From positions 344,968,001-345,032,000 of the forward strand of contig OZ024743.1 in NCBI GenBank assembly GCA_964016885.1: a stretch of 64,000 bases of DNA, in the 5' to 3' direction. The DNA is from Eledone cirrhosa. Taxonomy: Eukaryota. Shown here piece after piece: positions 1 through 64,000 of the stretch; positions within the stretch are counted from its first letter, which is position 1, and the number at the start of each line of letters is the position of its first letter. Position numbers and translations under genes: made by a program. Under the pieces are notes generated by a model. It ran no database searches, was not told the DNA's origin, and saw only the letters and a list, made by a program, of their open reading frames with translations.

Positions 1-369
1 CACTGTTCGGGCGTAGCCGATCTGTGGGGCTATGTCGAACAACTGCTGTCAAGGGTGGGACCGATCCGGTTGACCACCGAGACTATTGTAATGATCAAGC
101 CGCCTCCCCCCTTCAAAGATGAAGCAGAGGTGGTGTTTCTGTGCGTAATAGCCATAGCGAAAGAGGTTGTATGGTGGACGCGTCTGAAAGGACTGAGGTC
201 AGGCACCTTTCTCTCTGGCCAACAACTGGTCCGTTTCTTCCGATATCATTTCGGAAGAAGGATCAGGATGGAGAGAGAGGTGCTGCACCCCAGCCGTTTT
301 TATGAAAGGTGGGTGAAAGTGGCGAGAATGGCCCGTGTGAATGGGCCTTCTCTTTACATAAGCCTGTAG
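1..369 (+). CDS. C-terminal part of LINE ORF2 (open from window start)
   Basis: Uninterrupted frame 1-369 homologous to the ORF2 C-terminus of the element at 57994-59931. Confidence 0.85.
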   Translation, partial: HCSGVADLWGYVEQLLSRVGPIRLTTETIVMIKPPPPFKDEAEVVFLCVIAIAKEVVWWTRLKGLRSGTFLSGQQLVRFFRYHFGRRIRMEREVLHPSRFYERWVKVARMARVNGPSLYISL

Positions 370-632
370 GTGGAAAAGAGGACGGAACGAGGGAGCACCC
401 CCTCTCTGTGCTCCTGAGGAAAAGGGTTGCACACTTTTTTCGGGGGTGTGTGCAACCCCCCAAGGCGCCTCCTCTCTATTGAGGATTTTGTTAAAAATTT
501 TATTTTTTGTTATATCTTATTTTATTTTTATATTTTGTTATTGCCTCCTCCTTATTGAGGACGCCTTTTTGTGTAAACTCCCCTCTTTGTACTTGTCCCA
601 CTTTTGATGCCCTAGTGGCAAATAAAAGAAAC
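1..632 (+). mobile_element. 3' end of Tx1/L1-clade LINE, family A (ORF2 C-terminus, 3' UTR, AATAAA at 621-626)
   Basis: Frame 1 from base 1 reads HCSGVADLWGYVEQLLSRV...WWTRLKGL...ERWVKVARMARVNGPSLYISL*, which aligns with the C-terminus of the RT ORF at 57994-59931 (CPCIADLWGYVEQLLSRV...WWTRLKGL...ERWVNVARMARVSGPTLIMRL*). It ends in AATAAA followed by (ATCT)n. Confidence 0.93.
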
Positions 633-696
633 ATATCTATCTATCTATCTATCTATCTATCTATCTATCTATCTATCTATCTATCTATCTATCTAT
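633..696 (+). repeat. (ATCT)n microsatellite forming the tail/target of Tx1 family A
   Basis: Tetranucleotide repeat starting 6 nt after AATAAA. Confidence 0.95.
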
Positions 697-1717
697 CGAT
701 CTATTGATCGATCGATCTACTATTGACATACAAATGCACACACATCTATATATTTATTTTTCCATTTTTAGAGCATTGCTGATTTCTTTCAGGTATGGTA
801 AAATTAACTTAATTTGGTCATCATGCGTTCTGAAAAAGTAACAACATAATTGTGATTAATTATGAAATATATTGCTTATAATAAATCATAATGTGCATTT
901 TCATATCACAATACATATACAAATGATAGATATGTGACTGCCGATTAGTTGGTAATCCGTAATCGGCCAATACGCTTAGCGAGGTACAACGATTAACAAT
1001 ACTGGTGTATTAATATACCACTGATATATAAGTTCACCTTGCTTGGCAAAGTAAATCTTAAGCTCGTTGTGAATTGATAATCAACAGGTACGAAGGGTGT
1101 AGATAATCGGGAATCAATTCAATATGTACGTTCCAAACTGTATGGTTCTGGTTTTCACTGATCATATATATATTATCGCGTAGCAAGGAAAAATTACGAT
1201 CATTGTTTGACTGAAGTCCTTGAAATAGTCACATCGAAATTGCCTTGATTAACTCTAAAAATGAGATCATCCCGTCTTGTGATCATAAAATGTTTCGATT
1301 GTTCGACATTCGATCTGAGTTAATTGCAATGCCCTCTCCTAGTCTCGGCTTTAATTCTGATCTCTGTAAAAGCCCCACGCCTAACTGTTATGTTCGTTTG
1401 TCGTATACATTATGATTCCTTGCTTCTTTGGTCCCATTAAATAGACATTATTTTTATCTTTATTCTATATTTTTCATCTTCCTTTTTTTGTCTTTAGTTT
1501 TATATTTCTTTTAGTAACCTTAATCTGTTTAATCACTGTTCATTAATGTAATCCACTGGGTAATTGCTGGCCTTGTGCCTAAAGTAGAAACAATTAATTA
1601 GATTCTAAGTGGAGTCAACTTCCTTTAATATGTGGTCGTGGCTAGTTCATCATGACATTTAAACTAATATGCGCAACTGAAGGTAATGTCCTGTTAATTT
1701 TAATTTAATTTTATAGT

Positions 1718-1790
1718 ACCTGATGAACTCGTTTTCAGGAACGTATTGCACGTTCGTATGTAACCTTGCGAAACATGTTGGTCAAATAAA
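1718..1790 (+). ncRNA. Degenerate PLE-type hammerhead-like motif
   Basis: acc-TGATGA...GAAA-CATG-TT-ggt followed by AATAAA. Palindromic helix III (CATG), no separate C3, poor helix II. Confidence 0.4.
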
Positions 1791-60900: not shown

Positions 60901-61421
60901 GACAGTTGAAACTGGCTGATCAGGTACTTGAGGCTTTTGCACCCCCCGCTCCTATCAGATACTCCCACACAATCCCAGCGTGCTTCTAAGATGCCATTCC
61001 AATCCCCTATTAACAGTAAAGGGCGAGACGTAAGCAGAAAGTTTTCCAGGCGCCTAAAGAAGTCCGGCCGACCGGCCCCAGTAGGGGCGTAGACGGCCAC
61101 CAGTCTAAAGGCACCACCTTCGCTATTGCTCACGTCCAGGACCACCAACTTTCCGTCAGGATCCCGGAAGATTGACCTTACCTCGAGATCCAGACATTTC
61201 CTAAACAGCACAGCCACTACACCTCCCATTCCCGGCCGACTAACAGATGCAAAGATCTGATAATCGTCGAAAATCGGCGCCAGTGCGCGTGTGTCGGAAA
61301 TTCTGGTCTCGCTGATGGCAATTACATCCATTCCTAGTGACCTGAGGTCGTTGAGCAAGTGACCTTGCTTCCAGGGCGACCCCAGGCCACGAACATTTAA
61401 ACTTCCTACTCTTATGGCCAT
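57994..61421 (-). pseudogene. ORF2: AP endonuclease, RT and C-terminal cysteine motif; one frameshift (G-run at 60595-60608) and one in-frame TGA (59959-59961)
   Basis: SLNVRGL, ISET, VYAP, GDWN, IDRIF, SDH (APE); KSPGLDG, NFRPITLLN, DQSKAFDRVDH, VRQGCPLS, AYADD (RT); CPRC..ETVLHALVQC. Confidence 0.93.
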
Positions 61422-61450
61422 GCTGGCAGGATGAATGGGAGAGGAAAGGT

Positions 61451-63360
61451 TTACTTACCTTCCGGGGTCTTGTGAAGGTCGGGTGGTTCGACCTCCATGG
61501 TTTGTGGGGTTTCTTTTGGGAACCCCTTTAATAGTCTTGACGTGGGTTTTACGTTCGGGGTTCCCACATCCCGAGGAAAGCTCTTTCGAATTTCTTTGTA
61601 TGAAGCGAGCGACATTCGCATCAGAAGCAAATTATCTGGTGCGCGAAATGTGCTCGCTTCAAATGTTTCCCCCTCTTTTTCGATGTTTGTGCTTCGTGCT
61701 ACATGGGCCATCAATTCCTTGTTGGCCCTTCTGGCAAGCACGAAGTTTTTAATGTTTTGTTGCTCGGGTTTTATTTGTTCGTGTGATTGTGGTGGTGATA
61801 GCTTTGTTAGTGTTGTTTCTATTGTGTCTGCGTTTGATGTGGGTGGGGTGTCTGTAGTTTCTGATGTTTGTGTGTCTATTTGTTCTTGTGTCTGTTTAGC
61901 TTGTTTGCGTTTGGGGGATTTTGGTGGTTGTGTTGGTGATGCTGTGGGGAAAATGTTTGTGTGGGTGGTGTGTGTATTTTTTTTGTGGGGGTGTTTGTGC
62001 TTTGTGGATTTCTTTTTTTTTTGTGTTTTGTTTTTTGTATTTTGGGGGACTTTGGTTTTCCCTCATCTTCACTGCTGGAGGATGAGGGGTCTGTGGCTCT
62101 GAGCGTGTTTGTGTCTGAGTGAGTGTTTATGTTCTTGTTCGTGTGTGTATTTTGGAGGGGAGGGGGAATGGGAGAGCTTTCCTCGTTTCCCCCCTGGGTG
62201 TGCAATTTTGGTGGTTCCATTGTTGACGGTGTTGCTGGTGGTCCTTGTCCCGGCGTCGCCAGCAGTGGAATCTTTCGACCCCTTGCGCTTTTCGGCAGTT
62301 GAGGGCAGAAGGCTCGCAAGTGTGTCGTTTCCCCACAAAGGAAACAATGCGGCCTTTTGCCCTCAGTCATTATATGCAACACCCTCCCGTTTTGGAGGCG
62401 GATGTGGTCCGGGATTGCTTTTACGTTTTCGGGTCTGATTTGGAGCAGTATCTCCAGATCAACCCCGGACCAGTCGTCCCTGGCAGTTCTCGTTGCCTCT
62501 ACCGGGACTGTATCCGTTCCTTCCACGATTACGCAACCCAGGAGCCACCACATATCAAGTCCTGGTGGAATCCTGGGAATGCGCACACGTGCTATTCGTT
62601 TTCCCATGTGGGAGGGGTACATTATGACCTTGCTGGTTTTGCAAGGGGTCATTGAATGCTTCACAGCGAGGGCTTCAGACTTGAACAGCACCGAAACGGT
62701 GCCGTATTGCCTGCCCCTCTCTATGAAGTCTGTGTCCTCTCTGATGTATTTCAGTGCGGCTTCTATATCAGCTTGGGCGATTATCGCTGCCCTCTTTGTC
62801 TCTACTGAGATGCATCTGAAATGCACCGTTCTTTTTTCCACTGCCTCAATGGCTTCTGCCGGGACAGTTAAGTTTGCCCAGGTCTGCTCTTGATTTATGA
62901 TTTTCCAGGCCTGGGCCAACTTTTCCTCTCTGCTGGTTAAGTCGATGCTGTAGCATGGTCTCCTTTTAGCCGCTGCCACAGCAGCGAAGGTGTTCTTGTT
63001 GGTGTTGTCACTGTTGTTGTTCTTGTTGGTGTTGCTGCTGCTATTGCTGTTGTTGTTCTCCCCTGTGTCGTGGTTACCCTCTGTGCTGTTGGCCTTGTTG
63101 GTGCTGTTGCTGTCGCTACTATTACTCTCTGTGCTGTTCGTTTTGTTGGTGCTCTCGCTATTACCACCTTCTGCGCTGTTCAGCTTGTTGGTGTTGGTGT
63201 TGTCACTGTTACCACCTTCCGCGCCGCTCGGCCCGTTGGTGCTGGCACTGTCGCTGCTCACACTCGTGCTGGTGGCGCTTCTCGCCTCACCTCTCCTCTC
63301 AACGCTCAAGTCGCCGTTGCACGACAGCAGACCCGTCTCTAGGGGGCGTGGCTCCGCCAT
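61451..63360 (-). CDS. ORF1 (gag-like, CCHC zinc knuckle), probably one frameshift near the A-run at ~62013-62022
   Basis: ATG at 63360 (MAEPRPLE), N/S/T-rich repeats, CFLCGETTHLRAFC. The annotated frame stops at 61876, but another frame continues to TAA at 61451, 29 nt before ORF2. Confidence 0.8.
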
Positions 63361-63719
63361 GTTTTTTTGAGAAAAAAAATTATTATTTTTTCCAAAATAA
63401 AGTTCAAATATTTGGGCCAAAAGGCCCAAATATTATAAGTTATTCCTTCACAGGATACAAATGAATGTCTTATAATGCTTCAGCGGTACAAAAAATAAAC
63501 AATTCTCTACAATTAATCCTCAAAAAATTGCTTACTCACGGAGCTTCAAAAAACGTACATCCACTTTCGTCAATAATAATAATAATAATAATAATAATAA
63601 TATATATATATATATATATATATATATATATATATATATATATATATATATATATATATATATATATATATACACACACGCGCACACATAAACATATCTA
63701 CACACACACACGATAGCAA

Positions 63720-64000
63720 TTAACAGCGCTGCGATCGAATGTAGCTTTTTAGCCCAGCCAATCAAAACATTCACTGGGAATAGCCGGCTGTGGTGGGAGG
63801 TTATGTACTTTTGCATGCCGCTTGAGCCCTCCTGCTGATTTACATTCTCTACCACATGCTTGGCAAGCATGATGAGTAGAATCTCCAACAGCAGCCTGGT
63901 AGTCACCCACTGGTCTTACTTTATGACTGCGAAGATGACTTTCGAGTCCAACTTTGCTTAGGCAGAGTCTCGCTCAGACGCTGCCTGGAGATGCAACAGC
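63720..64000 (-). pseudogene. C-terminus of RTE-like ORF with tandem C2H2 fingers (decayed)
   Basis: GSV*ARLCLSKVGLESHLRSH, CQACGRECKSAGGLKRHAKVH, then (frameshifted) LAGLKSYIRSQRC*. Confidence 0.65.

Follow-up and report, generated by a model that had tools for sequence, protein, structure and literature searches.

Microsatellite addresses of retroelements in Eledone cirrhosa go with family and strand rather than class

Several retroelement families in the genome of Eledone cirrhosa (3.0 Gb; GC content 37%, from a random sample) are typically found in microsatellites, and the repeat unit depends on the family. Here we describe these families in a 64,000-nucleotide stretch of contig OZ024743.1 (positions 1..64000, called the window below) and in copies collected from the rest of the genome. 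They include Dong-like elements with a restriction-like endonuclease (RLE), RTE derivatives, Tx1-like long interspersed elements (LINEs), a short interspersed element (SINE A) and hammerhead families. The association between family and repeat is real and far beyond chance, and the address is a property of family and strand, not of class. Because 5'-truncated copies carry the repeats upstream, the counts support targets, and not merely tails, for Dong1, Dong2, RTE-N608, Tx1A and the hammerhead families. The best explanation, which the sequences make probable in our judgment, would be a cross-feeding network of elements, partitioned by family and strand rather than by class.

In the window, junctions were read directly outside the Tx1B body, and a self-comparison was added. 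For each family, up to 30 of the best genomic copies were taken with their flanks, and 60 copies were extended upstream; loci overlapping the window were left out of the genome-wide counts. The 24 nt at each junction were assigned to a repeat unit, read in the orientation of the element. Most telling are the 5' ends of 5'-truncated copies, since a repeat there cannot be the tail. Bystander copies did not enter the enrichment counts; they contributed to the analysis of orientation, to the SINE duplications, to Dong3 and to the GAT control described below. The background sample consists of 58 evenly spaced 10-kb stretches (580 kb) from the seven largest contigs. Perfect microsatellites make up 8.5% of this random DNA (TA 5.0%, ACC 0.75%, AC 0.71%, AAT 0.23%, ACAT 0.21% and AGAT 0.04%), and on one measure of microsatellite content (8.4 vs 8.7%) the window is average. 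At random positions in the 580 kb, the junction classes come up at 6.9-7.6% for AT, 0.55% for ACAT, 0.62% for ATGT, 0.33% for ATT and 0.09% for ATCT. The LINE and SINE copies of the window are as follows.

11655..12550, minus strand: Dong1 3' fragment carrying the RLE end; its tail meets that of an RTE-N608 copy, and (ACAT)n stands at the 5' break
22285-23157 and 23820-24244, minus strand: other Dong1 copies, 3' fragments
29110..29391, minus strand: Dong2, 5'-truncated; (ACAT)n on both sides, one tract in common with an opposite-facing RTE-N608
44890..47945, minus strand: Dong2, long decayed copy with (ACAT)n tail
11037..11640, plus strand: RTE-N608, bipartite non-autonomous RTE derivative made up of a 5' untranslated region (UTR) and a zinc-finger 3' end, with (ATGT)n upstream
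21673-22276, 23211-23815, 24232-24490, 29411-29691 and 35974-36379: other RTE-N608 copies
57615..57740, minus strand: true 3' end of RTE63 with the distal half of the 3' UTR, rich in microsatellites; both severed by the Tx1B insertion
63572..64000, minus strand: C-terminal zinc fingers of RTE63 and proximal 3' UTR cassette (GT, TA, ATT); the body continues in L032
1..632, plus strand: Tx1A, 3' end of a full-length Tx1-like LINE with (ATCT)n tail at 634-697; its 5' end, in the neighbouring stretch L031, is also in (ATCT)n
57741..63571, minus strand: Tx1B, full-length young Tx1-like LINE with apurinic endonuclease (APE), reverse transcriptase (RT) and zf-RVT; flanked on either side by (ATT)n and inserted within the RTE63 3' UTR
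24914..25094, plus strand: SINE A; duplications begin ATTAT, and the final ~25 nt resemble Tx1 3' ends
near 2612, 14562, 19703, 40921 and 41645: other SINE A copies

A first-pass annotation of the window, made by a model from the letters alone, had placed both Dong-like families and most RTE copies in ACAT/ATGT repeats, and this holds. The three Dong1 3' fragments and both Dong2 copies end in (ACAT)n, with ACAT also at the 5' side of three truncated copies, and four of the six RTE-derived copies touch (ATGT)n, while two end in (TA)n. Genome-wide, ACAT was found at 22/26 truncated 5' ends and 29/30 3' ends of Dong1, and at 16 of the 19 truncated 5' ends and 24 of the 30 3' ends of Dong2. From the latter, 11 apparent 5' ends (7 'full', 4 'truncated') had been dropped as breaks in the reference sequence. 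A third RLE family, Dong3, is 29% identical to Dong1 and has AAT at the 5' ends of truncated copies (5/5) and at 10 of 12 3' ends. Dong3 thus uses (AAT/TAA)n, the (TAA)n target of Dong proper; AAT junctions were absent among the scored ends of Dong1 and Dong2, which therefore do not share that target. The R4/Dong clade is marked by a microsatellite or rDNA target on both sides, and a microsatellite is seen there in all three families (ACAT for Dong1 and Dong2, AAT for Dong3).

An intact copy of Dong1 (genomic locus L372) encodes a single open reading frame (ORF) of 1170 aa with RVT_1 and zf-RVT domains. The conserved C-terminal CCHC and PD..E.K motifs give it the RLE layout of the R4/Dong clade, and its best structural matches are R2 structures, both in a profile search (E 2.5e-66, reaching the C-terminus) and with Foldseek. 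A zinc finger was searched for at the N-terminus and none was found; a conserved three-helix domain is predicted there (residues 27-79), and a single-sequence model of it is weak. A fold search with this N-terminal region gave an unspecific best Z of 6.3, and no Myb/SANT chain was among the listed matches, which is evidence neither way. A homologue named from Argonauta is 66% identical. At the junctions, ACAT runs are longer on the 5' side of Dong1 than on the 3' side (median 62.5 vs 19 nt; 18/24 pairs, p 5e-4), and background ACAT arrays have a median of 15 nt. Fresh synthesis could account for these long 5' runs, and so could a requirement for a long array upstream. As a separate observation, six Dong1 copies (22285-23157 in the window, and L004, L010, L011, L027, L029 and L030) break ~865 bp from the 3' end, possibly because of a hot spot, a short subfamily or query bias.

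RTE-N608, at 608 bp, is similar to the autonomous RTE63 in its 5' UTR (68%) and at its 3' end (80%). RTE63 shows RT similarity, and from their UTRs and layout both are putative RTE elements. The 5' flanks of 35 RTE-N608 copies genome-wide were ATGT in 24, TA in 10 and without repeat in one, so that 34/35 lie in ATGT or TA. The two ends of a copy agree: 22 are ATGT-ATGT, 7 TA-TA, 2 TA-ATGT and 2 ATGT-none (Fisher p 1.4e-5 for the first three classes). The tails of RTE-N608 and Tx1A change with the insertion site. A second bipartite derivative was also seen, in which the RTE63 5' UTR is joined to the RTE63 3' terminus (L311:2118-2424; L306).

The 3' UTR of RTE63 is itself a cassette of GT, TA, ATT and GTT runs (median 220 nt; 19/29 loci scorable), and inserted Tx1, SINE A and P2 elements are found in it. 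UTRs without an insertion serve as paralogous empty sites: their longest ATT run has a median of 17 nt (n=18), compared with about 38, 38 and 52 nt for the ATT split around Tx1B in occupied UTRs. A similar comparison of RTE tails as free sites for Dong is undiscriminating, with a median filled total of 116 nt (n=15), a free median of 38 (n=83) and a length-weighted free median of 87.

In three blocks, at 11037, 21673 and 23211, an RTE-N608 copy on the plus strand lies tail to tail with a Dong1 fragment on the minus strand. A single composite element was considered for these blocks and rejected, as Dong1 and RTE-N608 occur apart in most loci. The three pairs (11037-12519, 21673-23142 and 23211-24244) are 88-96% alike and have 1-3 repeat units separating the tails; they may have arisen by local duplication or moved together as a unit.

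Tx1A and Tx1B share 72-74% DNA identity in ORF2 and have the two-ORF layout of the Tx1 clade, with Exo_endo_phos (APE), RVT_1 (RT) and zf-RVT domains in ORF2. This ORF2 matched Xenopus Tx1 ORF2 at 223 bits and human L1 ORF2 at 122 bits, in different searches. Genome-wide, Tx1B has ATT at 44/44 full-length 5' ends and 25/28 3' ends, and 24 of the 44 full-length copies lie downstream of a Tx1 tail, a SINE tail or an RTE63 UTR. In HeT-A, short 3' tags precede full-length copies; such an arrangement was considered for Tx1B and rejected, since the upstream pieces are long Tx1 tails. Several Tx1B copies form head-to-tail arrays, ~5.85 kb apart. Copies picked solely by an identical 3' end (L331-L350) were full length in 20/20 cases, one with its first 31 bases masked.

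Unlike its sister, Tx1A is often truncated. Its 16 truncated 5' ends were ATCT in 7, TA in 2 and without repeat in 7, and at unique or non-ATCT sites it makes duplications of 9-48 nt, mostly starting TATC/TATA, without an array. That Tx1A ends in (ATCT)n had been noted in the first-pass annotation; it also starts there. For SINE A, 72/122 copies have target duplications, 43 of which begin ATT. Its target is ATTAT, its orientation is the same as that of Tx1 in 4/4 cases, and its 3' ~25 nt have a loose likeness to Tx1 (LINE) 3' ends. The link of Tx1B and SINE A with ATT given in the first-pass annotation was borne out for Tx1B and in the duplications for SINE A, which mostly lies outside microsatellites: in the random sample, 42/55 of its 5' flanks had no repeat and 8/55 had ATT. 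SINE A and Tx1A aim at short motifs (ATTAT; TATC/TATA), frequently outside arrays.

The hammerhead and palindromic families in the window are the following.

3707..3843, no strand assigned: P2, palindromic non-coding family, in (TA)n; copies also at 20613-20833 and 52445-52627
20613..20833, no strand assigned: the P2 copy that the annotation had cited; (TA)n, short on the right
3944..4833, minus strand: P1, hammerhead family, with partial tandem and inverted end; (TA)n on both sides
43999..44834, plus strand: P1 copy flanked by (TA)n on either side, with its hammerhead core near 44677
4856..5183, minus strand: P6, hammerhead family, core at 4951; second copy at 48688-49016
29929..31054, plus strand: P5, hammerhead-like tandem/inverted family, TA-flanked; also at 20935-21368
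42250..42583, minus strand: P7, canonical type I hammerhead, core at 42502; Rfam HH9 E 3e-4, under the gathering score; (TA)n on both sides
52989..53787, plus strand: P3, hammerhead family, core at 53555, tandem and inverted end; (TA)n on both sides

Four of these (3944-4833, 20613-20833, 43999-44834 and 52989-53787) had been described as Penelope-like (PLE) or hammerhead elements lying in (TA)n. They do have (TA)n on both sides, and five more hammerhead-type or palindromic window copies are TA-flanked, one of which (52445-52627) has (TG)n on the right. Hammerhead cores are present in P1 and P3, and a motif and stem scan with folds predicts a type I core, three stems and tandem or inverted repeats in P1, P3, P6 and P7, with Rfam support from HH9 only, below the gathering score. 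In the P2 copies that were read, including 20613-20833, a complete core is absent and the recognisable half is GAAAC/stem III only. No link from P1-P7 to a PLE reading frame was found in the loci examined, though PLE ORFs of the GIY-YIG type are common there; the Pfam GIY-YIG model gave no score on them. Among all scored ends genome-wide, TA was found at 46/58 for P1, 48/82 for P3, 25/30 for P2, 16/28 for P6 and 2/10 for P7; at truncation ends only, the counts were 15/24 for P1 and 8/18 for P3.

A LINE with a (GAT)n tail, taken from random DNA, served as a control for tails made by the element. Its 3' ends had GAT in 22/22 cases and its truncated 5' ends in 0/13, TA being present at 6 of the 13. 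The scoring therefore separates a made tail from a target. Should targeting be wrong, 5' junctions were expected at background frequencies; this is what the GAT-tailed LINE gave, and the targeted families listed above did not. Of 20 GAT arrays of at least 20 nt in the random sample, 14 were attributable by eye to its tails. Related to this family, which prefers TA sites, is an APE-RT LINE ORF with a PHD-finger match (L069:1701-4808).

Several families share an address, and here the strand matters. Dong and RTE-N608 copies in one tract had opposite orientations in 35/36 pairs, as had Dong3 and Tx1 or SINE copies in 8/8, while neighbours of the same type in one tract ran in the same direction (RTE-N608 15/17, Dong 4/4, Tx1 18/18, SINE 8/8). 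ACAT/ATGT is common to RLE and RTE elements, ATT/AAT to RLE and Tx1/SINE elements, and TA is used by the hammerhead families, RTE-N608, Tx1A and the GAT-tailed LINE. The first-pass annotation had given each class a repeat address of its own, and this did not survive: RLE families divide between ACAT and AAT and Tx1-like families between ATT and TATC/TATA, and several addresses are common to classes. Its further proposal, that elements both use and regenerate their repeats, agrees with the truncated 5' flanks on the one hand and with the target duplications and the RTE63 UTR cassette on the other. Regeneration takes three routes: target duplication, made tails (GAT) and carried cassettes (the RTE63 3' UTR).

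In published work, target-primed reverse transcription is the established route by which non-LTR elements insert; their target is determined by endonuclease specificity (PMC4494074), and RNA-end pairing can bias the insertion site (PMC6007223). Each family in the cross-feeding network would depend on a short sequence of its own, always on one strand, both for the endonuclease nick and for pairing of the RNA end with the cut DNA. Microsatellites of that sequence would be dense landing strips, and each insertion would split and partly copy them. Insertion would proceed by target-primed reverse transcription, with a first nick that we place at or near a TpA step because every targeted unit (TA, ACAT, ATT, ATCT) holds one, and with priming on perhaps 2-5 nt of pairing. 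The rule that TpA is present in any repeat hosting a family holds only with the qualification that GAT arrays are made tails and not targets. RLE proteins may nick the strand opposite to that nicked by APE proteins, which would give the antiparallel nests, and SINE A would borrow a Tx1 enzyme. The duplications observed are 8-48 nt and start ATTAT (SINE A) or TATC/TATA (Tx1A).

Some observations weigh against the network. The copies come from best-hit searches (40 scored per search), which makes them the youngest ones or those most similar. Targeting by RTE63 is loose: its 16 truncated 5' ends have ATGT at 4, TA at 2, another class at 3 and no repeat at 7. Tx1B is nearly never truncated (1/45 5' ends, that one without ATT), and as truncated copies are nearly absent from the set, the element itself may carry part of the 5' ATT. 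TA is weak for P7 and P6, and survival bias, with insertions in repeats being harmless, possibly contributes. A bolder version, which we put forward tentatively and think doubtful as a whole, has a genome-wide community in which RTE63 would spread the landing cassette, RLE and APE elements would split the shared repeats (ACAT/ATGT, AAT/ATT) by strand, Dong1 would write 50-100 nt of fresh 5' ACAT by template jumping or reiterative copying, and all this would make the sites that keep the community going, along with a real part of the microsatellite load.

Among the alternatives, the view that insertion is unselective and that the repeats are tails made in reverse transcription, or carried at element ends, describes the GAT-tailed LINE and the GAT arrays that it has left, and RTE tails are a known source of microsatellites (PMC2887409); the excess of 5' over 3' ACAT in Dong1 likewise indicates that some synthesis may occur. 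Yet the repeat is found 5' of many distinct truncation points, the tails of RTE-N608 and Tx1A vary according to where the copy lies, Tx1A at unique sites shows a duplication without an array, and ATT is already present in empty RTE63 UTRs. Having already failed for Dong1, Dong2, Dong3, RTE-N608, Tx1A and P1, this view is very unlikely to hold. Broad insertion followed by selection or recombination that retains copies in microsatellites has been suggested for Waldo-A/B, which lie near CA repeats in Drosophila (PMC3812793), and SINE A and Tx1A do enter unique DNA. Such retention would select neither unit nor strand, whereas near-identical Tx1B copies are all in ATT and AC, AG and ACC arrays are hardly used, and we regard it as quite improbable.

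A strict partition by class, with PLEs in TA, R4 and RTE elements in ACAT and Tx1 and SINE elements in ATT, and a cycle that drives the microsatellite load, finds support inside the window, where the pattern holds. In the random sample, targeted arrays are often flanked by identified families (5/10 ACAT and 11/23 AAT tracts), and a library-free count found recurrent repeat junctions at 121/469 TA flanks vs 13/1,234 controls. This reading is nevertheless unlikely, as one clade can have two addresses (Dong ACAT and AAT; Tx1 ATT and TATC) and one address two clades. Furthermore, the shares of ACAT, AAT and AGAT in random DNA are small beside that of TA, and the common AC, AG and ACC arrays are mostly without these families (5/44, 0/24 and 0/18 tracts). 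The claim that elements explain the microsatellite load of the genome is unproven, because identified families touch only 60/278 (TA)n tracts (3,867/23,106 bp). These counts are lower bounds from a small sample, and the direction of cause is not given by them. Under the favored explanation, the network probably has a strong influence on the rare ACAT, AAT, AGAT and GAT arrays and only a partial one on the dominant (TA)n load.

Microsatellite aiming is a known habit; for the targets and the sharing pattern described here, no counterpart was found in print. We found no published report of an ACAT-specific R4/Dong element, of an ATT- or TATC-specific Tx1 or of strand-split sharing; Repbase, Kojima and Fujiwara 2004 and supplements, which lay outside the search, may hold such entries. 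Dong, DongAg, DongBg and an ostracod Dong (R4 clade, RLE) are described as (TAA)n-specific (PMC3812793, PMC7998251). Like the Dong-like families here, they have a single ORF with RT, a CCHC knuckle, a PD-(D/E)xK end, no N-terminal zinc finger and microsatellite on both sides. Dong3 has their repeat, (AAT/TAA)n, whereas for Dong1 and Dong2 the repeat is a tetranucleotide, (ACAT)n, which in Dong1 forms long perfect runs at the 5' break. Waldo, which is unrelated to Dong, targets ACAY, and this includes ACAT (PMC3812793, PMC7998251, PMC4640811). Kibi in (TC)n, Koshi in (TTC)n and crocodilian Tx1 in (TTCC)n/(TTTC)n (PMC4494074) are likewise Tx1-like APE LINEs in microsatellites, with tandem stacks and a SINE with matching target; the families here differ in their targets, (ATT)n and TATC/TATA, in the unique sites that Tx1A also enters and in young Tx1B copies that are nearly all full length.

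For the remaining families, Neptune, Naiad and Hydra PLEs insert in (TA)n (PMC8557442), and animal non-LTR retrozymes are reported as PLE derivatives (bioRxiv 10.64898/2026.07.22.740005). The P families share with them type I hammerheads, tandem and inverted-end structures and a TA bias, so that nothing is new here. RTE-N608 resembles known RTE-clade LINEs and bipartite non-autonomous RTEs in its 5' UTR plus 3' end, its microsatellite 3' end and a presumed site-biasing RNA-end pairing (PMC6007223, PMC5786205, PMC2887409). Known RTEs, as those papers describe them, have short signatures and very short 3' UTRs, whereas RTE-N608 lies almost always inside ATGT/TA arrays and the ~220-nt multi-repeat 3' UTR of RTE63 is used by other families. 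In the SSR-rich (simple sequence repeat) genome of penaeid shrimp, Penelope and RTE elements are, as here, associated with SSRs and carry them (PMC7878876); in comparison with that study, junctions, strand and duplications were scored here per family, and target was told from tail. The Octopus vulgaris annotation (PMC13282606) lists a mix of element families similar to that of this genome.

The sister families are natural matched pairs for the study of enzyme site choice (ACAT vs AAT in RLE elements, ATT vs TATC in Tx1), with unrelated enzymes on opposite strands of one repeat and with young copies and an intact Dong1 ORF at hand. Three routes of making microsatellites, by target duplication, made tails and carried UTR cassettes, can be distinguished within one genome. 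This bears on the repeat richness of cephalopod-like genomes and on the reason that microsatellite markers in them would often hit several loci.

Further observations concern the window and related loci. Rfam miRNA matches in the window were rejected as TA hairpin noise. Their origin is perfect hairpins with a TA or GA core (42791-42896, 35715-35805), which are likely inverted ends of PLE-type elements. The stretch 36600-38700 is decayed and DNA-transposon-like, hAT-like by eye and without a Pfam match. Decayed true PLE fragments lie at 32216-32524 and 33800-34990, one an endonuclease end and the other of a CxxC-linker type with inverted end, and each adjoins TA. The P5 family forms a tandem array of at least 11 units of ~555 bp (L068:3952-9851), and a 7-bp A-rich unit is present in ~41 copies at 47954-48246, within a P6 element on the 5' side of Dong2.

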